Assembly (NCBI RefSeq): GCF_054482525.1
Contig: NZ_CM137006.1
DNA: 64,000 nucleotides
Strand: one strand, 5' to 3'
Shown here: piece by piece, positions 3,252 to 31,224 of the stretch
Layout of the letters: the number at the start of each line of letters is the position of its first letter
How positions within the stretch are numbered: the stretch's first letter is position 1
The notes under the pieces: generated by a model
The model's database searches: none
What the model saw: only the letters and a program-made list of their open reading frames with translations
What the model was told of the DNA's origin: nothing
Made by a program: the position numbers and the translations under genes

Positions 3252-3644
3252 ATGAAGAAACTTGTTTTAGTCGCAGGTGTAATGATTGCAACAGTAATGT
3301 TGGGAGGGTGTGCAGCAAAGATCGATCCAGCGTTGAAAGCAGAAGCAATGAAGCCACTAACATGTAATGATGAAAAGCAATGTGACTTTTATTGGAAACG
3401 AGCGCAATTCTGGTTGGCTAATAATTCCTCATGGAAAATTCAAACGGCGACAGACACGCTAATTTCCACTTATAATCCCTCTCCAAATAGTCCATTCCTC
3501 GCTTATCAAGTGAGTAAAATGCCAAATGAAGATGGATCCTCAAGAATTTTCATCAAGCCTTTTTGCGATAATATGTTTGGCTGTCAACCAAACCCCTATC
3601 AGGCAGTTGTTTCCTTTAAAAACTTCGTTAAAACAGGGCAGTAG
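3252..3644 (+). CDS. Predicted lipoprotein of unknown function
   Basis: 130 aa; signal peptide with lipobox (VMLGGCAA); four further Cys; RBS ggga 7 nt upstream. Confidence 0.55.
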   Translation: MKKLVLVAGVMIATVMLGGCAAKIDPALKAEAMKPLTCNDEKQCDFYWKRAQFWLANNSSWKIQTATDTLISTYNPSPNSPFLAYQVSKMPNEDGSSRIFIKPFCDNMFGCQPNPYQAVVSFKNFVKTGQ

Positions 3645-3843
3645 TGTATAGCTTGGACGATAAATTATTAGTGAAAACGCCGTAAACCCTCACCCAATGT
3701 GGACTAAGTCTATCAAACATGACTGTGATGATTAGTCCGTAGTTGTTGTCTATGAAATCTGGATTGAGTCAGGGTTTAATCCAATAATTATTCTATCGTT
3801 CCTTTACAAGTCCGGTATATTACTTTCAGTTTGTTTTAGCATA

Positions 3844-3868
3844 CCCGCTTCGGCGGGTTTTGTTTTTT
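3844..3868 (+). terminator. Rho-independent terminator
   Basis: cccgcttcggcggg hairpin followed by a T-run. Confidence 0.5.
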
Positions 3869-3940
3869 CCTGGCATTCTGGTTTACAATTCGCACGCCAG
3901 CCTGAACAACTGGCACCTGCTGCGCCAGCAGAGACAACCG

Positions 3941-4219
3941 ATGGCGCACGATACCAAATTACACAATTCTGATGATTCTGCCGTCTTTGCCAGCAGGCAC
4001 GGGCGGCGTTCCCGCACTTTCAAATCTGACTGGTTCCAGCATGACCCATGTACTGAAGAACAGGCCGAATGGCTAATTCATAACTATCGCAGACGCGGAT
4101 ACGAGATTAAGAAAGCCCTCAGCCTCGATTATCGTCACTGGATAATCTATGTCAGGCTCCCTTATTCCGAACGCCCACCGCGCCCATCCCGCACATACCA
4201 GCAACGGATCTGGAGGTAA
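3941..4219 (+). CDS. Hypothetical nin-region protein (possibly YbcO/DUF1364-like)
   Basis: ORF 3860-4219; internal Met at 3941 (MAHDTKLHNSDD...) chosen because a terminator occupies 3844-3868. Confidence 0.35.
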   Translation: MAHDTKLHNSDDSAVFASRHGRRSRTFKSDWFQHDPCTEEQAEWLIHNYRRRGYEIKKALSLDYRHWIIYVRLPYSERPPRPSRTYQQRIWR

Positions 4220-5270
4220 CGTGCGGATATTACTTCGACCTGTTCTGGTACCGGAACTCGGGCTGGTGGTCCTTAGGCCGGGCCGTGAATCCATGCAAGT
4301 ATTTCATAACCCTCGAGTGCTGGTGGAGCCTGAACCGAAAAGCATGCGCGGTCTGCCGTCCGGAGTCGTCCCTGCCGTTCGCCAGCCGCTGGCGGAGGAT
4401 AAATCATTACTGCCATTTTTCAGCGATGAGCGGGTGATTCGTGCTGCTGGCGGCGCTGGGGCGCTGTCTGACTGGCTGTTGCGTCATGTCAAATCCTGCC
4501 AGTGGCCTCATGGTGACTATCATCACAGTGAAATCGTCATACATCGTTACGGTACCAGCGCGATGGTGTTGTGCTGGCACTGCGACAACCAGTTGCGTGA
4601 CCAGACATCCGAATCACTCGGGCAACTTGCTCATCAAAACCTGTCAGCATGGATGATTGACGTCATACGCCATGCAATGAATGGCACGCAGGAGCGGGAA
4701 TTGTCGCTGGCTGAATTATCTTGGTGGGCGGTCTGCAATCAGGTGGCGGACGCGCTTCCGGAGGCAGTATTACGTCGTTCTCTGGGGGTACGTGCGGAAA
4801 AAATCCGCTCCTTGTACCGCGAAAGCGACATCGTACCGGGAGAGCAGACCGCCACCAGCATACTGAAGCAGCGCACAAAAAATCTTGCGCCGTTGCCTCA
4901 TGCCCACCAGCAACAGAACCCACCACAGGAAAAGACGGTGGTATGCATCACCGTTGATCCGGAGTCTCCGGAATCTTTCATGAGGCGACCTAAACGTCGC
5001 CGTTGGCTAAATGAGAAATATACGCGCTGGGTGAAGACACAGCCGTGTGCGTGTTGTGGTCAGCCAGCCGACGATCCCCATCACCTGATTGGTCACGGTC
5101 AGGGAGGGATGGGAACAAAGGCCCACGATATTTTCACGCTACCGTTGTGCCGGGAACATCACAACGAACTTCATGCGGATCCGCTGGCGTTCGAAGAAAA
5201 GCATGGTTCCCAGGTTGATTTAATTTTTCGTTTTCTTGATCACGCCTTTGCAACCGGCGTGCTCGGGTAA
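4149..5270 (+). CDS. DUF968-like protein with C-terminal HNH-type zinc motif
   Basis: C-terminus CACCGQPADDPHHLIGHGQGGMGTKAHDIFTLPLCREHHNELH; same position as ydfU-type genes upstream of rusA/Q in E. coli prophages; start ambiguous (4149 or 4290). Confidence 0.5.
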   Translation: MSGSLIPNAHRAHPAHTSNGSGGNVRILLRPVLVPELGLVVLRPGRESMQVFHNPRVLVEPEPKSMRGLPSGVVPAVRQPLAEDKSLLPFFSDERVIRAAGGAGALSDWLLRHVKSCQWPHGDYHHSEIVIHRYGTSAMVLCWHCDNQLRDQTSESLGQLAHQNLSAWMIDVIRHAMNGTQERELSLAELSWWAVCNQVADALPEAVLRRSLGVRAEKIRSLYRESDIVPGEQTATSILKQRTKNLAPLPHAHQQQNPPQEKTVVCITVDPESPESFMRRPKRRRWLNEKYTRWVKTQPCACCGQPADDPHHLIGHGQGGMGTKAHDIFTLPLCREHHNELHADPLAFEEKHGSQVDLIFRFLDHAFATGVLG

Positions 5271-5642: not shown

Positions 5643-6328
5643 ATAACCAGTATTTACAGTTTGTGCGTGAGCAGCTCATTATCGCCACCGCTGATTTGAG
5701 TGGGGCAACAAAAGGTCAGCTTGAAGCCTGGCAAGAGAATGCCATGTTCGATACAGGGCGTTACAGGCGAAAAAAAATCCGGTACCGCGATGAAGTGACT
5801 GGAAAAATGATAACGCGGGATAATCCACCAATCCCGGGAAAGCAATCGCTGGCGAAGGGGACGTCAATTCCTCTGGTCAGTCCGGTTGAGTTTTCGACAT
5901 CATCGTGGCGGCGGGCTGTTTTGTCTCTTGAAGAACATCATAAAGCCTGGTTGTTGTGGTGTTACAGCGGGAGTATTTGTTGGGAATATCAGATCGCGAT
6001 AACACAGTGGGCGTGGAATGAATTTAATACTCAATCCGGTACCAGAAAAATTGCAGGGAAAACGCAGGAACGCCTGAAAAAATTAATCTGGCTGGCGGCG
6101 CAGGCAGTAAAAGCAGAACTTTTTGGTGGGGAAGGTTATGAATACCAGGAGCTGGCATTACTGGCGGGAGTGACAACTAAAAACTGGTCCAAAACATTTA
6201 CTCGTCACTGGGTTGCAATGAAACACATTTTTCACCGACTTGATAGTGAGGCTTTATTGTTTGTAATGAGAACACGTTCAAAACAAAAGGCGGCATTTTC
6301 AAAGCAAAGTATTGCAAAAGTAGATTGA
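5633..6328 (+). CDS. Putative late-gene antiterminator (Q-like)
   Basis: 231 aa directly downstream of rusA and upstream of a terminator, tRNA cluster and lysis genes; assignment by position only. Confidence 0.45.
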   Translation: MRMNNQYLQFVREQLIIATADLSGATKGQLEAWQENAMFDTGRYRRKKIRYRDEVTGKMITRDNPPIPGKQSLAKGTSIPLVSPVEFSTSSWRRAVLSLEEHHKAWLLWCYSGSICWEYQIAITQWAWNEFNTQSGTRKIAGKTQERLKKLIWLAAQAVKAELFGGEGYEYQELALLAGVTTKNWSKTFTRHWVAMKHIFHRLDSEALLFVMRTRSKQKAAFSKQSIAKVD

Positions 6329-6393
6329 AAGGCATATATTTCATGCAAATCTGATATTTTGCCGATTTTGTACGTGATGGCAAAAGCAAACAA

Positions 6394-6522: not shown

Positions 6523-6598
6523 GGCCCTTTAGCTCAGTGGTGAGAGCGAGCGACTCATAATCGCCAGGTCGCTGGTTCAAATCCAGCAAGGGCCACCA
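6523..6598 (+). tRNA. tRNA with CAT anticodon (Ile2/Met-type)
   Basis: 76 nt cloverleaf ending CCA; anticodon loop CTCATAA; close to E. coli ileX as recalled. Confidence 0.7.
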
Positions 6599-6599
6599 G

Positions 6600-6676
6600 C
6601 CGCCACTAGCTCATCAGGAAAGAGCGTCAACCCTTTAAGTTGAGTGTGCGAGGTTCGAGTCCCCGGTGGCGGTCCA
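6600..6676 (+). tRNA. Atypical tRNA-like gene (anticodon loop CCTTTAA, UUU with C33); possibly non-canonical or pseudo-tRNA
   Basis: 77 nt; acceptor CCGCCAC/GTGGCGG plus T-CCA; D-arm GCTC/GAGC; T-loop TTCGAGT; one A-C mismatch in T-stem. Confidence 0.4.
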
Positions 6677-6678
6677 GT

Positions 6679-6754
<76 letters not shown>

Positions 6755-6757
6755 TAT

Positions 6758-6832
<75 letters not shown>

Positions 6833-7757: not shown

Positions 7758-8291
7758 ATGAACGCAAAAATCAGATACGGCCTGTCGGCTGCCGTTCTGG
7801 CACTGATTGCCGTCGGTGCGCCCGCGCCTGATATTCTCGACCAGTTTCTGGATGAAAAAGAAGGTAACCACACAACGGCATACCGCGATGGTTCCGGCAT
7901 CTGGACCATCTGTCGGGGTGCCACGATGGTGGATGGAAAACCCGTTTTTCCCGGTATGAAACTGTCGAAGGAAAAATGCGACCAGGTCAACGCCATTGAG
8001 CGTGATAAGGCGCTGGCATGGGTGGAGCGCAATATTAAAGTACCACTGACCGAACCACAAAAAGCGGGTATCGCGTCATTTTGTCCCTATAACATTGGCC
8101 CCGGTAAGTGTTTTCCATCGACGTTTTATAAGCGGCTGAATGCTGGTGATCGTAAGGGCGCATGCGAGGCGATTCGCTGGTGGATAAAAGATGGTGGGCG
8201 CGATTGCCGCATACGTTCAAATAACTGCTATGGACAGGTTATTCGTCGTGACCAGGAAAGCGCATTAGCCTGTTGGGGAATAGATCAGTGA
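7758..8291 (+). CDS. R: SAR endolysin (T4-lysozyme-like, GH24)
   Basis: 177 aa; N-terminal hydrophobic signal-anchor-release stretch; catalytic motif [16 protein letters not shown]. Confidence 0.8.
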
Positions 8292-8755
8292 GCAGAGTCG
8301 CCGCGATTATTTATGCTCTGGTTATCTGCATCATCGTCTGCCTGTCGTGGGCGGTCAATCATTACCGTGATAACGCCATCACCTACAAAGAACAGCGTGA
8401 TAAAAAAGTCAGTGAGCTGAAGCAGCTGACCGCCACCATCGCTGACATGCAGCAGCGTCAGCGTGATGTTGCTGCGCTCGATGCAAAGTACTCGAGAGAA
8501 TTAGCCAATGCGAAAGCTGAAAATGAAACTCTGCGCGCTGATGTTGCCGCTGGTCGTAAGCGCCTGCGGGTCAATGCCAGTTGCTCCGCAGCCGTGCGTG
8601 AAGCCACCGGACCCACCAGCGTGGATAATGCAACCAGCCCCAGACTGGCAGACACCGCTGAACGGGATTATTTCACCCTCAGAGAACGGTTGATGACGAT
8701 GCAGAAGCAACTGGAAGGGGCACAGCTATACATTCGTGAGCAATGTCTCAGATAA
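8273..8755 (+). CDS. Rz: Spanin inner-membrane subunit (Rz-like)
   Basis: N-terminal TM segment, coiled-coil body, overlaps endolysin 3' end; Rz1 ORF embedded in +1 frame. Confidence 0.6.
8508..8693 (+). CDS. Rz1: Spanin outer-membrane lipoprotein (Rz1-like), embedded in Rz
   Basis: 61 aa; lipobox LVVSAC; proline-rich mature part. Confidence 0.7.
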
Positions 8756-8910
8756 AAACCGGCCAAGGATAATCCGCTAAAGATTCGCCGGTGGCGAAAG
8801 AGAGCCAAGGTGTCAACCTACGCTATTACTTATGATAATGCAACAGACGAAGCGGGACATATTGGCGCATAACAAATCAGTGCAGGCTAACTGCAGGAAG
8901 AACTTAGGGC

Positions 8911-9177
8911 GTGAACGTAGAAAACCTAAGTAACGCACATTACATCTATAACGAGATGAAAGAGCTACAGCGACAGAAAGGTATACTGGAAAGTGGTGCA
9001 GGGCTTGGTGTGACAATCCAGTCTGCCTATCAATATAGTGCTTTTCTTGAGGCCATACGCCCGCATGCAGTTGCTGAACTTAACAGCCGTATTGAGGAAA
9101 AGAAATCCGCGCTGGTTAATTTGGGTGCTTCCTTCTCTATATACGAGCATAATAAGGCGGGTTGGAAACCCGCCTAA
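8911..9177 (+). CDS. Hypothetical protein
   Basis: 88-aa ORF after Rz; ends in a bidirectional hairpin (ggcgggtt..aacccgcc, about 9152-9176). Confidence 0.35.
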   Translation: MNVENLSNAHYIYNEMKELQRQKGILESGAGLGVTIQSAYQYSAFLEAIRPHAVAELNSRIEEKKSALVNLGASFSIYEHNKAGWKPA

Positions 9178-9182
9178 AGCAC

Positions 9183-9722
9183 TTAGAAACTGCGTGGAGC
9201 TGTGGAAAGAATGGATGCCAGTTCTTCCTTCGATAAATCCCAGCTTCGATTTACAGCGTCAATTTTCTTAAACTCATCAAGCATTGCGTTATAGAGATGT
9301 TCTGTACGTGAATGAGTATTGGCAATGGGCTGTTTCTGTTCGGGGAAGCGATCAATTTTCTGATATGCCTCAATGATACTGAAGTAATCGCATTCATTAT
9401 TACCGTCGAAACCTGGGAGCTGAATTGCCCCATCATGTATTTTTAGATGATGGTCACGGACTAATTCTTTTTGCTCGTCATCACTAAGTTTCCTGAAAGC
9501 ATTGGAAAGTCCGCGATACATATTCAAGACAGCAGTAACAAAATCACGATCTTCTTTACTTGGTTCATCAACATCCAAATGTGAATATTCGGCCTTCATA
9601 ACCCAACCATTACCAGATGACACAGCATATTTAACAAGCTGTGGATCAATATCAGTTTCGATACCTAGGTGGATGGCAATGTCACATAACAAAATGGTAT
9701 TGATTTTATCTTTAATATCCAT
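9183..9722 (-). CDS. YfbU-family (UPF0304-like) protein, antisense to phage late genes
   Basis: 179 aa; by-eye alignment to E. coli YfbU as recalled (..NMY..L, GFD, THS, LSKEELASI); only credible minus-strand gene in the prophage part. Confidence 0.5.
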   Translation of the reverse strand: MDIKDKINTILLCDIAIHLGIETDIDPQLVKYAVSSGNGWVMKAEYSHLDVDEPSKEDRDFVTAVLNMYRGLSNAFRKLSDDEQKELVRDHHLKIHDGAIQLPGFDGNNECDYFSIIEAYQKIDRFPEQKQPIANTHSRTEHLYNAMLDEFKKIDAVNRSWDLSKEELASILSTAPRSF

Positions 9723-9860
9723 GAGTTAACCCTCTGAAGTAAAAAGTAATATCTACACCCGTTAGCTCATGAAGTCTATTGATCTGGCTCATATCAGCGG
9801 CAAATCTATTTCATGGAGATACTCAATGCAGGTCACTTTTGATTTATATAAGGGCGAAAC

Positions 9861-10211
9861 ATGCCAGCACTAATCCCACGAGCCTGCCGTAAACGTGGAT
9901 GTGCAGGTACAACCACAGACAGTTCTGGTTACTGCGATAAACATCGTGGCGAAGGATGGGTACAGCATCAGCGCGGACTGAGTCGCCACCAGCGTGGCTA
10001 TGGCTCGAAATGGGATGCCATACGTGCGCGCATACTGAAGCGTGATAATGATCTGTGTCAGAACTGCCTGCGCAATGGGAGAGCCGTTGAAGCCAGAACT
10101 GTGGACCACATCATTCCGAAAGCTCATGGTGGCTCGGATGCAGACAGTAACCTGCAGAGTCTGTGCTGGCCCTGCCATAAAGCAAAAACAGCGCGCGAAC
10201 GCATCAATTGA
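9861..10211 (+). CDS. HNH endonuclease (packaging-associated)
   Basis: 116 aa; CxxC...DHIIPKAHGGSDADSNLQSLCWPCHKAK; immediately upstream of terminase small subunit. Confidence 0.75.
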   Translation: MPALIPRACRKRGCAGTTTDSSGYCDKHRGEGWVQHQRGLSRHQRGYGSKWDAIRARILKRDNDLCQNCLRNGRAVEARTVDHIIPKAHGGSDADSNLQSLCWPCHKAKTARERIN

Positions 10212-10360: not shown

Positions 10361-10843
10361 ATGTCAGGACCTCCGAAAACCCCGCCACGCCTGCATTTGA
10401 TTCGAGGTAACCCCTCAAAGCGCCCCGTTAAAGACCACAAAAAAACCGCTAAAAAGGATGAAAAAGGTCTTCCTAAAATTCCGCAGCATTTAGGGGCTCA
10501 GGGGAAGTACTGGTTCAGGCGAATGGCGGAAGAGCTGAATGCGGAAGGGATCATTTCTCAGCTTGATGCGCGTGCGCTCGAGCTGCTGGTGGAAGCCTAC
10601 ACCGAATATCGGCATCACTGCGAAACACTCGATGTTGAGGGGTATACCTACCGCACGGAAACGCAGAGCGGTGATGTACTGATTAAGGCGCACCCCGCGG
10701 CGGCAATGAAAGCGGATGCCTGGAAGCGGATCCGGGCAATGCTTGCAGAGTTTGGTATGTCACCGGCAAGCCGGGCTAAAGTAAATATCGCCGGACCGGA
10801 TGATGTTGATCCGCTGGCGGAGCTTTTAAAAGCGAGAGACTGA
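10361..10843 (+). CDS. Terminase small subunit (P27-type)
   Basis: 160 aa basic N-terminus; stop overlaps start of large terminase. Confidence 0.7.
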   Translation: MSGPPKTPPRLHLIRGNPSKRPVKDHKKTAKKDEKGLPKIPQHLGAQGKYWFRRMAEELNAEGIISQLDARALELLVEAYTEYRHHCETLDVEGYTYRTETQSGDVLIKAHPAAAMKADAWKRIRAMLAEFGMSPASRAKVNIAGPDDVDPLAELLKARD

Positions 10844-12600
10844 TGGCAAAAGTGGCTGACGGGATCCGCTACGCCGAACGTGTTGTTGCAGGAGAAATTG
10901 TTGCTGGCGAATTTGTCCGCCTGGCCTGCCAGCGTTTTCTTGATGATCTGAAGTACGGCGAAGAGCGGGGGATTTATTTCAGTGAACCCCGTGCGCAGCA
11001 CATCCTGAATTTCTACAAATTTGTGCCTCATGTAAAAGGGGCGCTGGCAGGCCAGCCCATTGAGTTGATGGACTGGCATGTATTTATCCTCATTAATATT
11101 TTTGGTTTTGTCATTCCGCTGGTCAATGAAGAGACCGGGGAAGTTGTCATGCGCAGCGATGGCAGCGGACGTCCGGTGATGGTGCGCCGGTTCCGGACGG
11201 CGTACAACGAAGTCGCCCGTAAAAACGCAAAATCAACTCTGTCATCGGGTATCGGCCTGTATATGACGGGGGCAGATGGTGAAGGCGGAGCTGAGGTGTA
11301 TTCAGCCGCAACCACGCGTGACCAGGCCAGAATCGTGTTTGAAGACGCCAAAAATATGGTCAGAAAAGCCCGGTCGACACTCGGGCGGTTGTTTGATTTC
11401 AACAAGCTGGCGATTTACCAGGAGCAGAGCGCATCAAAATTTGAACCGCTTTCTTCGGATGCAAACAACCTAGATGGTCTGAACATCCACTGCGCCATTA
11501 TTGATGAGCTGCATGCACATAAAACCCGTGACGTGTGGGACGTTCTGGAAACGGCAACCGGTGCCCGTCTGCAGTCCCTTTTATTTGGTATCACCACGGC
11601 AGGGTTTAACAAGGAAGGGATTTGTTACGAGCAGCGTGATTACGCCATCAAGGTATTGCGTGGCTATAACAGCGACGTGGAGGGCGCGGTAAAAGACGAC
11701 TCCTACTTTGCGATTATTTACACCCTCGATGAGGGAGATGATCCGTTTGATGAAACGGTCTGGCAGAAAGCGAATCCCGGCCTGGGCATCTGTAAACGCT
11801 GGGATGATCTGCGTCGCCTGGCGAAAAAAGCGAAAGAACAGGTCTCTGCGCGGGTGAATTTTTTTACCAAACACATGAATGTGTGGGTAACAGCAGAGTC
11901 TGCCTGGATGGACATGATTAAGTGGGAGAAGTGCGAATACATTGCCCCACGACATGAGCTGAAAACGTATCCCATGTGGGTCGGCGTTGACCTTGCTCAT
12001 AAGATTGATATCTGTGCGGCGGCAAAACTCTGGCGAACGGATAACGGGCATGTTCATGCCGATTTTAAATTCTGGCTTCCGGAAGGACGGCTGGAACGAT
12101 GCTCGCGGCAGCAGGCAGAACTTTACCGGAAGTGGGCGGAGATGGATAAGCTGATTCTGACGGATGGTGATGTTATCGATCATGCTCAGATAAAAAGTGA
12201 CTTACTGGAATGGATTGGTGGTGAAAACCTCAGGGAACTGGGATTTGACCCGTGGAGCGCGATGCAGTTCAGCCTGGCACTGGCTGAAGAAGGGATACCG
12301 CTGGTGGAGGTTCCGCAGACGGTTCGCAATCTGTCAGAGGCCATGAAGGAAACGGAATCACTGGTCTATGCCGGGCGTTTCCATCACAGCAATCATCCGG
12401 TCATGAACTGGATGATGTCTAACGTTACGGTAAAACCGGACAAAAACGACAATATCTTCCCGAATAAATCCACGCTGGAAGCCAAAATCGACGGCCCTGT
12501 TGCGATGTTTACAGCAATGAGCCGGATGCTGGTCAATGGTGGTGAACCGGAGCTGGATCTGTCTGAACATCTGGTCAGCGTGGGCATCCGCTCGCTTTAA
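10843..12600 (+). CDS. Terminase large subunit
   Basis: 585 aa; ATPase Walker-like region and nuclease C-terminal half; position before portal. Confidence 0.85.
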
Positions 12601-28160: not shown

Positions 28161-28760
28161 ATGCGTAAATTATGTGCTGTTATTCTGTCCGCAGTAGTCT
28201 GGCTGGTTGCCGCTGGTACGCCAGCGAGCGCAGCAGAGCATCAGTCCACACTAAGCGCCGGGTATCTTCAGACCCATACTGATATGCCAGGCAGCGATGA
28301 CCTGAAGGGCATTAATGTGAAATACCGTTATGAATTTACGGACACGCTGGGGCTGGTGACGTCATTCAGTTATGCCAATGCCAAAGATGAGCAAAAAACG
28401 CATTACAGCGATACCCGCTGGCATGAAGATTCAGTGCGTAACCGCTGGTTCAGCATGATGGCGGGGCCATCTGTACGCGTGAATGAATGGTTCAGTGCTT
28501 ATGCGATGGCAGGTGTGGCTTACAGCCGTGTTTCGACTTTTTCCGGGGATTATCTCCGCGTAACTGACAGCAAGGGGAAAACGAACGATGTGCTGACCGG
28601 AAGTGATGATGATCGCCACAGCAACACGTCTCTGGCGTGGGGAACTGGCGTGCAGTTTAACCCGACCGAATCCGTGGCCGTTGATATTGCTTATGAAGGT
28701 TCCGGCAGTGGCGACTGGCGCACTGACGGTTTCATCGTGGGTGTCGGTTATAAATTCTGA
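28161..28760 (+). CDS. lom: Lom-like outer membrane protein (Ail/Lom family)
   Basis: 199 aa; signal peptide, beta-barrel pattern, C-terminal GVGYKF. Confidence 0.8.
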   Translation: MRKLCAVILSAVVWLVAAGTPASAAEHQSTLSAGYLQTHTDMPGSDDLKGINVKYRYEFTDTLGLVTSFSYANAKDEQKTHYSDTRWHEDSVRNRWFSMMAGPSVRVNEWFSAYAMAGVAYSRVSTFSGDYLRVTDSKGKTNDVLTGSDDDRHSNTSLAWGTGVQFNPTESVAVDIAYEGSGSGDWRTDGFIVGVGYKF

Positions 28761-28786: not shown

Positions 28787-28815
28787 AGCCCGCCGGTTCA
28801 GGCGGGCTTTTTTGT
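28787..28815 (+). terminator. Rho-independent terminator after lom
   Basis: agcccgccggttcaggcgggct hairpin followed by a T-run. Confidence 0.55.
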
Positions 28816-28818
28816 GGA

Positions 28819-31224
28819 GTGGATATGGCAGCAGTAAAAATCTCAGGTGTGCTGAAAGATGGTGCGGGAAAACCAATACAGAACTGCACTATTCAACTGA
28901 AGGCAAAGCGTAACAGCACCACGGTACTGGTGAACACGGTGGCCTCTGAAAATCCGGATGAAGCCGGGCGTTACAGCATGGATGTTGAGTATGGCCAGTA
29001 CAGCGTCATCCTGCTGGTTGAAGGTTTTCCGCCTTCACATGCCGGGACCATTACCGTCTATGAAGGCTCCAGACCAGGTACGCTGAATGATTTTCTCGGT
29101 GCCATGACGGAAGATGATGTCATGCCGGAGGCATTGCGTCGTTTTGAGGAAATGGTGGAAGAAGCGGCACGCAACGCTGAAGCCGCCTCTCAGAGCGCAG
29201 CGGCGGCAAAGAAATCAGAAACTGCAGCGGCATCATCGAAGAACGCGGCGAAAACCTCAGAAACGAATGCAGCTAACAGCGCACAGGCGGCAGCGGCCTC
29301 ACAGACTGCATCAGCAAACTCCGCGACAGCAGCCAAAAAATCAGAAACCAACGCGAAAAATAGCGAGACAGCCGCAAAGACGAGCGAAACCAACGCAAAG
29401 TCCAGCCAGACGGCAGCGAAAACCAGCGAAACGAATGCCAAAGCCAGTGAAACTGCGGCAAAAAACAGCCAGGTTGCAGCAGCCCAAAGCGAGAGCGCGG
29501 CAGCCGGTTCTGCGACTTCAGCAGCTGGATCAGCAACTGCTGCGGCTAACAGCCAGAAAGCTGCGAAGACGAGTGAAACTAACGCAAAGTCCAGCCAGAC
29601 GGCAGCGAAGACCAGCGAAACGAATGCCAAAGCCAGCGAAACTGCGGCGAAAAACAGTCAGGATGCAGCAGCCCAAAGCGAGAGTGCTGCAGCTGGTTCT
29701 GCAAGCGCGGCGGCTGCTTCTGCCACTGCATCAGCCAACAGTCAAAAAGCAGCAAAAACCAGTGAAACCAATGCAAAGACAAGCGAGACTGCAGCGGCGA
29801 ACTCGGCGAAAGCATCGGCAGCAAGCCAGACAGCAGCTAAAGCAAGTGAAGACGCAGCCAGAGAGTATGCAAGTCAGGCAGCAGAGCCGTATAAATATGT
29901 CTTACAGCCACTGCCTGATGTGTGGATACCGTTTAACGATTCACTGGATATGATTACGGGCTTTTCGCCGTCATATAAAAAAATTGTTATTGGTGATGAT
30001 GAAATAACGATGCCTGGCGACAAGGTTGTTAAGTTTAAACGCGCATCAACTGCCACATATATCAATAAATCAGGCGTATTTAGTGTTGCTAAAATTGATG
30101 AGCCACGATTTGAAAAAGAAGGTTTATTGATTGAAGGACAGCGCACTAACTATTTTGTTAAATCCAATACTCCCGCTGAATGGACGAGTACCAGCAATAT
30201 CGATAAAACTAATAATGGTGTTGATGAATTTGGTTTTTCATATGCCAAAATGCGAACAAAAGATAATATGACAGGACAATCATCTGCACTTAGTCTGCAT
30301 ACATGCAGTGCATCCCGGGGGATTGATGTTAGTGGCGATAATAAGTATTGCACTGTTTCATGCAGGGTTAAAGCTCCTGATGGTCTTCGTTGTCGTTTGC
30401 GTTTTGAAAAATACGATGGGTCGGTTTATACATTTTTAGGAGATGCTTATTTAACTTTCGGAACTCTGATAATAGAAAAAACTGGCGGAGCAGCCAATAG
30501 AATAGCAGCTACTGCAACTAAAGATCCGGTTACAGGGTGGATTTTCTATGAGGCAACTATAGAAGCTGTTGAAGGTGAAACCTTAATTGGCGCAATGATT
30601 CAGTATGCGCCGAAAAAAGGTGGTATAACTGAAGCGGGAGATTATATTTACCTTGCAACACCACAATTTGAAAACGGCGGATGTGCTTCATCTTTTGTTA
30701 TTACGACAACTGCACCCGCAACCCGCTCCAGTGATATGGTGACGATCCCAACTGAAAATAATATCTATAATAGACCGCTTACGTGTCTTGTCGAGGTTAA
30801 TAGAAATTGGGGCGATATTCCTCCTAATGTAGCACCGCGTATTTTTGATTTTTCTGGTGTGCCACCTATTGAGTCAATTACATACGCTTTTAACACAACT
30901 GAGAAATATTACGGTCAGCTTTATATGCAGACTTATAAAGCGTCGACAAGTACTTACGTTTCTAGTGTGTTTGCTGGTCGAACTGATGTTCGAAAATTCA
31001 TTGGTGGTTTTAATATTTATTCTGATGGTACTAAACGAGTAGTTTCTAACGGTGAGGCTACTAAAACTATGAAAACGGAGTGGACGGGCGTAAAAACACG
31101 GACCTTTATTCGAATTGGAGGTCAAGCCACATCGGGAACTCGTCATCTATTCGGCCATTTGAGAAATCTTCGTCTCTGGCATAAAGAATTAACTGATGCG
31201 CAAATGGGGGAGAGTATTAAATGA
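28819..31224 (+). CDS. stf: Side tail fibre protein (Stf-like) with Ala/Ser/Thr repeat stalk
   Basis: 801 aa; N-terminus like lambda Stf as recalled; central KTSETNAKxSxTAA repeats. Confidence 0.8.
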   Translation: MDMAAVKISGVLKDGAGKPIQNCTIQLKAKRNSTTVLVNTVASENPDEAGRYSMDVEYGQYSVILLVEGFPPSHAGTITVYEGSRPGTLNDFLGAMTEDDVMPEALRRFEEMVEEAARNAEAASQSAAAAKKSETAAASSKNAAKTSETNAANSAQAAAASQTASANSATAAKKSETNAKNSETAAKTSETNAKSSQTAAKTSETNAKASETAAKNSQVAAAQSESAAAGSATSAAGSATAAANSQKAAKTSETNAKSSQTAAKTSETNAKASETAAKNSQDAAAQSESAAAGSASAAAASATASANSQKAAKTSETNAKTSETAAANSAKASAASQTAAKASEDAAREYASQAAEPYKYVLQPLPDVWIPFNDSLDMITGFSPSYKKIVIGDDEITMPGDKVVKFKRASTATYINKSGVFSVAKIDEPRFEKEGLLIEGQRTNYFVKSNTPAEWTSTSNIDKTNNGVDEFGFSYAKMRTKDNMTGQSSALSLHTCSASRGIDVSGDNKYCTVSCRVKAPDGLRCRLRFEKYDGSVYTFLGDAYLTFGTLIIEKTGGAANRIAATATKDPVTGWIFYEATIEAVEGETLIGAMIQYAPKKGGITEAGDYIYLATPQFENGGCASSFVITTTAPATRSSDMVTIPTENNIYNRPLTCLVEVNRNWGDIPPNVAPRIFDFSGVPPIESITYAFNTTEKYYGQLYMQTYKASTSTYVSSVFAGRTDVRKFIGGFNIYSDGTKRVVSNGEATKTMKTEWTGVKTRTFIRIGGQATSGTRHLFGHLRNLRLWHKELTDAQMGESIK
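29180..29860 (+). repeat. In-frame tandem repeats within stf, including a direct duplication of about 120-190 bp
   Basis: gcaaagtccagccagacggcagcgaa... occurs at about 29395 and again at about 29581; many shorter related units. Confidence 0.7.

Follow-up and report, generated by a model that had tools for sequence, protein, structure and literature searches.

We analysed a window of 64,000 nucleotides (nt), the whole stretch to which the coordinates refer (NCBI RefSeq assembly GCF_054482525.1, contig NZ_CM137006.1), and studied the locus at 8756-9860, which lies in a Qin/HK97-like lambdoid prophage of E. coli between the lysis genes Rz/Rz1 and the HNH/terminase genes. Positions 9138-9860 were found to be a self-contained cargo cassette (a 'moron') in which a YfbU-fold gene has an upstream region and a probable terminator hairpin to itself, and the small open reading frame (ORF) beside it is an ordinary conserved late gene, a neighbour rather than a partner of the YfbU-like gene. 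As to function, we somewhat favour a lysogen-expressed, stand-alone defence role of the abortive-infection type, resembling the published Kamadhenu system. The elements of the locus are as follows.

9183-9722, minus strand: YfbU-fold gene, ATG start, 179 amino acids (aa), from the ORF list and the sequence
8911-9177, plus strand: small late-operon ORF, phrog_5415, GTG start, 88 aa, made up of the canonical 76 aa and a 12-aa read-through tail, IYEHNKAGWKPA
9155-9175, minus strand: GC-rich hairpin AGGCGGGTT-GGA-AACCCGCCT, folding into a 9-bp stem and a 3-nt loop
9723-9860, minus strand: upstream region of the YfbU-like gene, 138 nt, with the Shine-Dalgarno sequence GAGGG (CCCTC on the plus strand, 9730-9734) and about 75 nt that form a conserved block
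9808-9836, minus strand: weak promoter-like element GTGACC-N17-TGAAAT, a candidate only
8756-8910, no strand: intergenic stretch after Rz, the left edge of the variable cargo slot

The 179-aa protein is a member of the YfbU/PF03887 (UPF0304) family. It matches PF03887 in Pfam at an E-value of 2.1e-12 (47.8 bits), where residues 38-172 align with model positions 38-164 of 166, and a profile of thirty-one homologues searched against the PDB recovered the chains 1WPB and 4LR3, both E. coli YfbU, at E 1.1e-7. The hhalign probability to YfbU is 95.4%, and the protein was found to share with 1WPB a helical fold of two domains. It took the profile search to recover YfbU from the PDB, as single-sequence phmmer gave only a spurious match to stathmin there and none to YfbU. 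The assignment to the YfbU family made in an initial annotation of this DNA is therefore borne out by the Pfam, PDB-profile and hhalign matches, although the relationship is distant and not orthologous. Orthology with the chromosomal E. coli YfbU was ruled out by a score of 35.5 bits against the NCBIfam equivalog PRK05445 (below its 90-bit cut-off), by an insignificant pairwise BLASTP match to K-12 YfbU (20% identity, E 0.037) and by the prophage context, which replaces yfbV-yfbU-hxpA.

In an alignment of 151 family members, G104-F105-D106, N135, Y144 and M68 are common to the window protein and E. coli YfbU, whereas W40, N108 and H137, present in 95-97% of the clade of ~180-aa proteins, correspond to R, A and Q in the E. 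coli protein. Both N108 and H137 were also found in an Enterococcus plasmid relative. With a pI of 5.0 the protein is acidic, and it is soluble. It lacks a signal peptide, and because it also lacks any hydrophobic segment, a membrane-located exclusion function of the bor, Sie or Imm type was rejected. Close homologues fall into forty-two clusters, and a search of 1.84 billion representatives (50%-clustered) gave 517 relatives at E <= 0.001, mostly of 170-190 aa. One viral protein with the YfbU fold was found in BFVD (template modelling score about 0.7), and it adds no functional information.

The YfbU-like gene is real, under strong purifying selection and compositionally foreign. The ratio of nonsynonymous to synonymous substitution rates (dN/dS) among homologues is 0.05-0.13, also in pairs that are nearly saturated at synonymous sites, and the length of about 179 aa and thirteen invariant residues are kept over a range of 28-98% identity. 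Its GC content is 39%, compared with 52-54% in Rz, HNH and terL. Broken copies were also observed: in L041 (2804-4001) an IS5 insertion sequence with a 326-aa transposase interrupts, at about codon 87, a YfbU-like gene that is otherwise 98% identical, and separate frameshift variants of 156 aa were also found (P0029, P0033 and P0038). Because such IS5-broken and frameshifted copies occur, the gene is dispensable to the phage. These copies, and the want of an evident promoter, would also fit a decaying or neutral passenger that has no present function, but we consider this extremely improbable in view of the low dN/dS at saturated synonymous sites, the constancy of length and of the invariant residues, and the retention of the gene in 223 of 5426 complete E. 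coli genomes.

The boundaries of the cassette were observed by comparison with other phages. In the distant carriers L035 and L036, DNA homology to the window begins exactly at the YfbU stop codon (9183), and in L036 it runs to 9779, so that it covers the YfbU-like gene and about 57 nt upstream of it. In E. coli M8 (L043) the matches run from 8842 to 9137, where the canonical part of the small ORF has its final codon, and resume at 9861, the start of HNH; a sense-strand gene of 187 aa (phrog_18591; L043 3375-3938) replaces the YfbU cassette. For strain 20Ec-P-124 (L044), homology to the window stops at 8895 and returns at 9861, with an antisense GNAT acetyltransferase gene (3679-4164) filling the interval. 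The same slot holds an antisense 157-aa gene in L093 (3277-3750), an antisense 196-aa gene followed by two glycosyltransferase-like genes in L109 (3264-3854 for the former), and a 77-aa gene alone in L117. Because sister prophages hold other genes there, Rz and HNH enclose a variable cargo slot, in which about 9138-9860 forms one of the interchangeable units. None of the alternative cargo genes (GNAT and the 157-, 196-, 187-, 143- and 85-aa genes) has a defence annotation in PADLOC, NCBIfam or PHROGs; when the GNAT, 157-, 196- and 187-aa slot genes and the glycosyltransferase-like gene are taken together, NCBIfam matches the glycosyltransferase-like gene alone and PADLOC matches none. The YfbU-like gene resembles bor-like morons in being antisense between Rz/Rz1 and the packaging genes, foreign in composition and swapped in sister phages. 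The position beside the genome end (cos/pac) corresponds to known hotspots. The initial annotation had regarded this junction as a slot for lysogen-type cargo, and the antisense orientation, low GC, own hairpin and other cargo in sister phages are the marks of such cargo.

At the left end of the cassette, the hairpin begins 7 nt past the YfbU stop codon and sits within the last seven codons of the 88-aa ORF, and on the YfbU strand it is followed by UUAUUAU. We compared sixteen distinct post-stop sequence variants of YfbU-like genes, representing the window-type cassette and seven more divergent lineages. Apart from L039/40 and L057-59, whose folds are the weakest, a clear GC-rich stem-loop was found about 8-21 nt after the stop codon, with stem sequences that differ among variants, and clear T-runs follow the stem in L035, L047 and L051. 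The stems of the window and of Klebsiella differ by compensatory changes (GGCGGGTT/AACCCGCC versus GGCGGGG/CCCCGCC). Because YfbU-like lineages have their own hairpins of differing sequence at the same place, the hairpin belongs to the YfbU cassette. The two ORFs do converge on it, as had been noted before, but it is not a shared element as was then supposed. It is probably the gene's own, somewhat weak intrinsic terminator, although a consensus terminator scan did not call it. At the other end of the cassette, the block of about 75 nt upstream of the gene recurs in different phage backbones, among homologues with 57-100% identity at the protein level.

Eleven independent lineages of YfbU-like genes, with 30-94% identity to the window protein, were sampled by their genomic context. 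They are listed by identity, carrier, orientation and position.

94%, Klebsiella prophages: antisense, between the small ORF and HNH/Terminase_4
82%, L035: antisense, between Rz/Rz1 and HNH
75%, L036: antisense, adjoining Rz, endolysin and holin, beside a 292-aa TIR protein
57-58%, L039 and L047-50: antisense, between lysis genes and a lambda-type Nu1/GpA terminase
54%, L051-54: antisense, between lysis genes and a Nu1/GpA terminase, next to a KilA-N gene
34%, L056: antisense, between LysC/DUF2570 lysis genes and Terminase_4
34%, L057-59: antisense, between Q with a type II restriction-modification pair and holins
30%, L148: antisense, between DUF2514 and Terminase_2
36%, L150: sense orientation, between lysis genes and Terminase_2
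32%, L151: phage contig, beside an HTH repressor

Nine of the eleven lineages have the gene in the lysis-terminase position, across phages of the P27/HNH, lambda Nu1/GpA and Terminase_2 types, and it is antisense to the flanking phage genes in nine of eleven as well. This recurrent antisense placement at the lysis-packaging junction across phage lineages is an addition of the present analysis. Plasmids of Kosakonia, Raoultella, Acinetobacter and Enterococcus carry more distant family members in their accessory regions, and the distribution of relatives is that expected of mobile-element cargo. Defence genes adjoin the YfbU-like gene in two of these contexts. The 292-aa TIR protein of L036 (578-1456), a metagenomic phage contig, was assigned by PADLOC to the candidate system PDC-S66 (E 1e-113) and fits ThsB-like models as well, and a type II cytosine methyltransferase together with a 661-aa REase_II/HATPase_c_3 protein lies between Q and the antisense YfbU-like gene in L057 (6385-9403; also in L058 and L059). 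The cargo of L057-59, just upstream of the holins, lies in a second cargo slot, which in Stx phages is taken by stx.

The small ORF has a distribution of its own. It belongs to phrog_5415 (E 2e-38 in PHROGs), a family of at least 276 clusters from Escherichia, Citrobacter, Salmonella and Klebsiella prophages, whose canonical form has 76 aa and ends in ...LGxSFS. Purifying selection acts on it, its dN/dS being 0.05-0.27 in twenty-seven of twenty-eight pairs, the exception (0.48) being a near-identical pair with a dS of 0.06. The Klebsiella and E. coli M8 copies have a stop codon directly after SFS, whereas the window copy has TAT-ATA where homologues have TAA and runs on for another twelve codons, reaching into the hairpin. 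A 1-nt indel at the stop site, found in other E. coli copies, gives a 77-aa form. Because the stop codon was lost here and indel variants occur elsewhere, the 12-aa tail is an accident and not a selected overlap. The AlphaFold2 (AF2) model of the small protein is a helical hairpin, and a fold search with it gave no PDB match at E <= 0.001, only nonspecific helical hairpins with a best E of 0.77. No match to the small ORF was found in Pfam, NCBIfam or PADLOC. On one contig (L030, the same contig as L141), two diverged phrog_5415 copies were observed about 1.3 kb apart at 4549-4809 and 6110-6334, with 54% and 77% identity to the window copy.

A YfbU-like gene neighbours the small ORF in 33 of 80 viral loci, most of which are near-identical E. 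coli phages, and is absent from the other 47; where the small ORF is at most 87% identical to that of the window, YfbU stands alongside in ten of fifty-seven loci. Conversely, nine of the eleven independent YfbU lineages (82, 75, 57-58 and 30-36% identity) lack an adjoining small ORF, namely L035, L036, L039/40, L047-50, L056, L057-59, L148, L150 and L151. The 54% lineage (L051-54) has a 143-aa ORF beside its YfbU-like gene, with a 75-aa gene two positions beyond. The trio of small ORF, YfbU and HNH is kept by Klebsiella prophages alone. The linkage is thus frequent within one phage backbone but not obligate. The proposal in the initial annotation that the two genes form a pair, possibly a toxin-antitoxin module, finds no support in these counts or in the orientation of the genes, which cannot be co-transcribed because they are convergent. 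Type II toxin-antitoxin systems are a poor comparison as well, for the two genes do not co-occur consistently and no toxin or antitoxin family was matched in Pfam, NCBIfam or PADLOC.

A wider form of that proposal treats the two convergent genes as one module, either toxin-antitoxin or two-component exclusion, in which the small protein would neutralise or sense its partner and the hairpin would couple their expression. The junction of small ORF, hairpin and YfbU-like gene is indeed kept between E. coli and Klebsiella despite divergence (72% identity in terL, 72% in the small ORF and 94% in YfbU), and partners exist somewhere in the family, since some plasmid YfbU-family genes form a tight operon with an unannotated gene of ~170 aa. 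However, the co-occurrence figures above go against a module from both sides, the genes lie on opposite strands with the small ORF being part of the late operon, and one and the same 99% YfbU gene occurs with small-ORF variants of either 87% or 99% identity. The tail over the hairpin is a read-through accident that frameshifts alter in other copies, no toxin-antitoxin or defence family was matched, and the small protein has no fold match. We therefore hold the one-module explanation to be very unlikely. The plasmid operons are those of L042 (3998-5035, Enterococcus) and L153 (5486-6552, Raoultella), with the ~170-aa gene downstream of the YfbU-family gene in Enterococcus and upstream of it in Raoultella, and some branches of the family may act as two-gene systems. 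The YfbU-like gene studied here appears to be independent of a partner, judging from an autonomous cassette with its own hairpin and from neighbours that vary by lineage.

Defence is the best-supported function of the YfbU-like gene because the single-gene YfbU-domain abortive-infection (Abi) system Kamadhenu has been shown experimentally (PMC11381338, PMC12184496). The fold, purifying selection, cassette autonomy, slot variability and defence neighbours (TIR and restriction-modification) all support this reading, and on balance we incline towards a Kamadhenu-like system that would act on its own in the lysogen. Out of the exclusion, defence and toxin-antitoxin roles first proposed for the locus, it is defence that gains from the Kamadhenu precedent, and the pair and toxin-antitoxin parts of the proposal are not supported. 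In such a system the gene would be expressed in the lysogen, and its protein alone would stop superinfecting phages in the manner of abortive infection. Phages escape Kamadhenu through point mutations at G22 of a Sak-like single-strand annealing protein (PMC12184496), and by analogy the trigger may be the recombination or replication machinery of the incoming phage, the infection being halted, possibly by cell death. On induction of the prophage, Q-antiterminated late transcription would run antisense through the YfbU-like gene and could silence it, which would provide self-immunity.

Several observations weigh against the defence reading. Expression in the lysogen is an assumption, given that no credible sigma-70 promoter was found: a consensus scan of the window upstream region gave no minus-strand promoter, and among seventeen upstream variants scanned, the window copy had no sigma-70 match above shuffles. 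Under strict matching the best sigma-70 site scores 6/12 for the window and 9/12 for the Klebsiella variant, and shuffled sequences do as well as either; the candidate GTGACC-N17-TGAAAT scores 8/12 without the -10 A2 (9/12 in the Klebsiella variant), with which a promoter is not established. Kamadhenu was compared by description alone (size, domain, fold, single gene and mobile carriage). The only Lactobacillales relative compared, the Enterococcus plasmid protein, is 25% identical to the window protein; no Lactococcus was among the matches listed when both proteins were searched by tblastn against PLSDB, and a protein search with the Enterococcus relative gave enterococcal and unnamed matches only. 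PADLOC-DB 2.0 (2023), which predates Kamadhenu, gave no family at E <= 1 for either protein of the locus. We know of no biochemical activity for the YfbU fold. In addition, the YfbU-like gene of L150 points the same way as its late genes, and the constancy of the site beside the terminase in several phage types could instead reflect a role in the cycle of the phage itself.

Such a role belongs to an alternative in which the protein serves the phage or lysogen and not defence, either by modulating, mimicking or poisoning the YfbU-dependent DNA-damage death of the host, which would keep an SOS-induced prophage from being lost when the host kills itself, or through another accessory part in the transition from lysis to packaging. 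E. coli yfbU deletion mutants survive DNA-damage-triggered, mazEF-dependent death, so that the host gene is a 'death gene' specifically under DNA damage, the signal that induces lambdoid prophages (PMC2646832). A large complex has been described for 1WPB (PMC11381338), into which a divergent paralogue could assemble, and the GFD, N135 and Y144 core is common to both proteins, but their identity is low (16-20%) and the clade-defining W40, N108 and H137 are absent from the host protein. The lysis-terminase position is kept across phages with three terminase types; however, the gene is missing from most sister phages that have the same lysis and packaging genes and is broken by IS5 in one, and it is therefore not needed for the phage cycle. 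Relatives also occur on plasmids without lysis or packaging genes, and the sole tested relative, Kamadhenu, is a defence gene. We regard a non-defence function of this kind as rather unlikely, and prefer defence. A broader extension of the defence reading is offered tentatively and with considerable doubt: YfbU-fold proteins might form a widespread, hitherto overlooked class of temperate-phage immunity, encoded antisense at the lysis-packaging junction of unrelated phages, that senses the annealing or recombination activity of a superinfecting phage and triggers death. Its antisense placement would be the self-immunity switch, with Q-driven late transcription silencing the gene on induction, and the chromosomal yfbU would be a domesticated relative.

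The genes that flank the locus are given below.

8273-8755: Rz, with Rz1 embedded at 8508-8693, left of both ORFs
9861-10211: HNH endonuclease, right of the YfbU-like gene
10361-10843: small terminase terS, P27-type
10843-12600: large terminase terL

The ORF list and the sequence agree with the initial annotation on both ORFs, on their coordinates and on their place between Rz/Rz1 and HNH/terminase, and the divergent upstream region described there is present (138 nt) and conserved among homologues. The locus is 99-100% identical to that of the induced E. coli phages vB_EcoS-689R5 and 611R1 and of a Qin-like prophage of E. coli W46, in which the NCBI Prokaryotic Genome Annotation Pipeline (PGAP) names the two genes 'YfbU family protein' and 'hypothetical protein'. 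PGAP places no other coding sequence than the YfbU-like gene on the minus strand of this near-identical prophage from the replication genes to the tail fibres, in keeping with the earlier description of an only minus-strand gene. At least 80% of the 1105-bp locus was found in the 223 E. coli genomes mentioned above, chromosomal every time. A scan of 8600-10000 against Rfam gave no family. Elsewhere in the window, a cluster of four tRNA genes (Met-CAT, Lys-TTT, Thr-TGT and Gly-TCC) was observed at 6523-6832 between the Q antiterminator and the holin, the first of which is tRNA-Ile according to PGAP in W46. A hokD type I toxin gene is placed at 3525-3680 by coordinate transfer from the W46 annotation. 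The W46 prophage (NZ_CP163115.1, 2984746-2985204) has an IS200/IS605 transposase between lom and a tail-fibre gene, and a coordinate offset of 717 nt at about 28800-29600 of the window suggests that the window is without it and hence does not derive from W46 itself, although the locus is 100% identical. By gene order and length, and allowing for that offset, the window ORF at 28161-28760 corresponds to the W46 gene for an Ail/Lom-family outer-membrane protein.

RefSeq already names the YfbU-like gene correctly and a YfbU-domain defence system is published; the gene is at most a distant new relative of that defence, in a new host and carrier. Further additions of this analysis are the anatomy of the autonomous cassette, its separation from the small ORF, and a map of the slot between phrog_5415 and HNH/terminase with other antisense genes, which become candidate defence genes too. 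If the defence reading is true, the only known YfbU-domain anti-phage system, Kamadhenu of Lactococcus plasmids, extends to enterobacterial prophages, the biochemical role of the YfbU fold, whose structure dates from 2004, becomes approachable through E. coli genetics and phage panels, and a link between YfbU, phage annealing proteins and DNA-damage death becomes testable. If it has no defence function, the gene is a routine uncharacterised moron, correctly named in RefSeq.

Among known systems, lambda bor occupies the same slot after Rz/Rz1 and before the packaging genes, and it is antisense to the late operon as the YfbU-like gene is. Unlike the soluble YfbU-like protein, bor is an outer-membrane lipoprotein, and the two have no sequence or fold relation. 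Tai defence genes are reported to lie mostly upstream of the packaging module in phages (PMC11364771), a position that the YfbU-like gene shares, but Tai acts on tail assembly and likewise has no sequence or fold relation to it. E. coli YfbU (b2294; PDB 1WPB and 4LR3; UPF0304) has the fold, Pfam family, GFD motif, N135, Y144 and M68 in common with the window protein. The two differ in that the window protein has only the 16-20% identity given above, is 15 residues longer, carries the clade residues W40, N108 and H137, and is encoded on a low-GC mobile element instead of the conserved chromosomal operon yfbU-hxpA-yfbS. The nearest comparison by description is Kamadhenu, a single-gene abortive-infection system with a 180-aa PF03887 protein from a Lactococcus plasmid (locus pUCCL624_130; PMC11381338, PMC12184496). 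Although the YfbU-like gene lies in the late region of an Enterobacteriaceae prophage and not on a Lactococcus plasmid, both have a single protein close to 180 aa in length (179 in the prophage) with little besides one YfbU/PF03887 domain, and both are carried on a mobile element and have defence genes nearby in some contexts. Like Kamadhenu, the YfbU-like gene appears to need no conserved partner gene.

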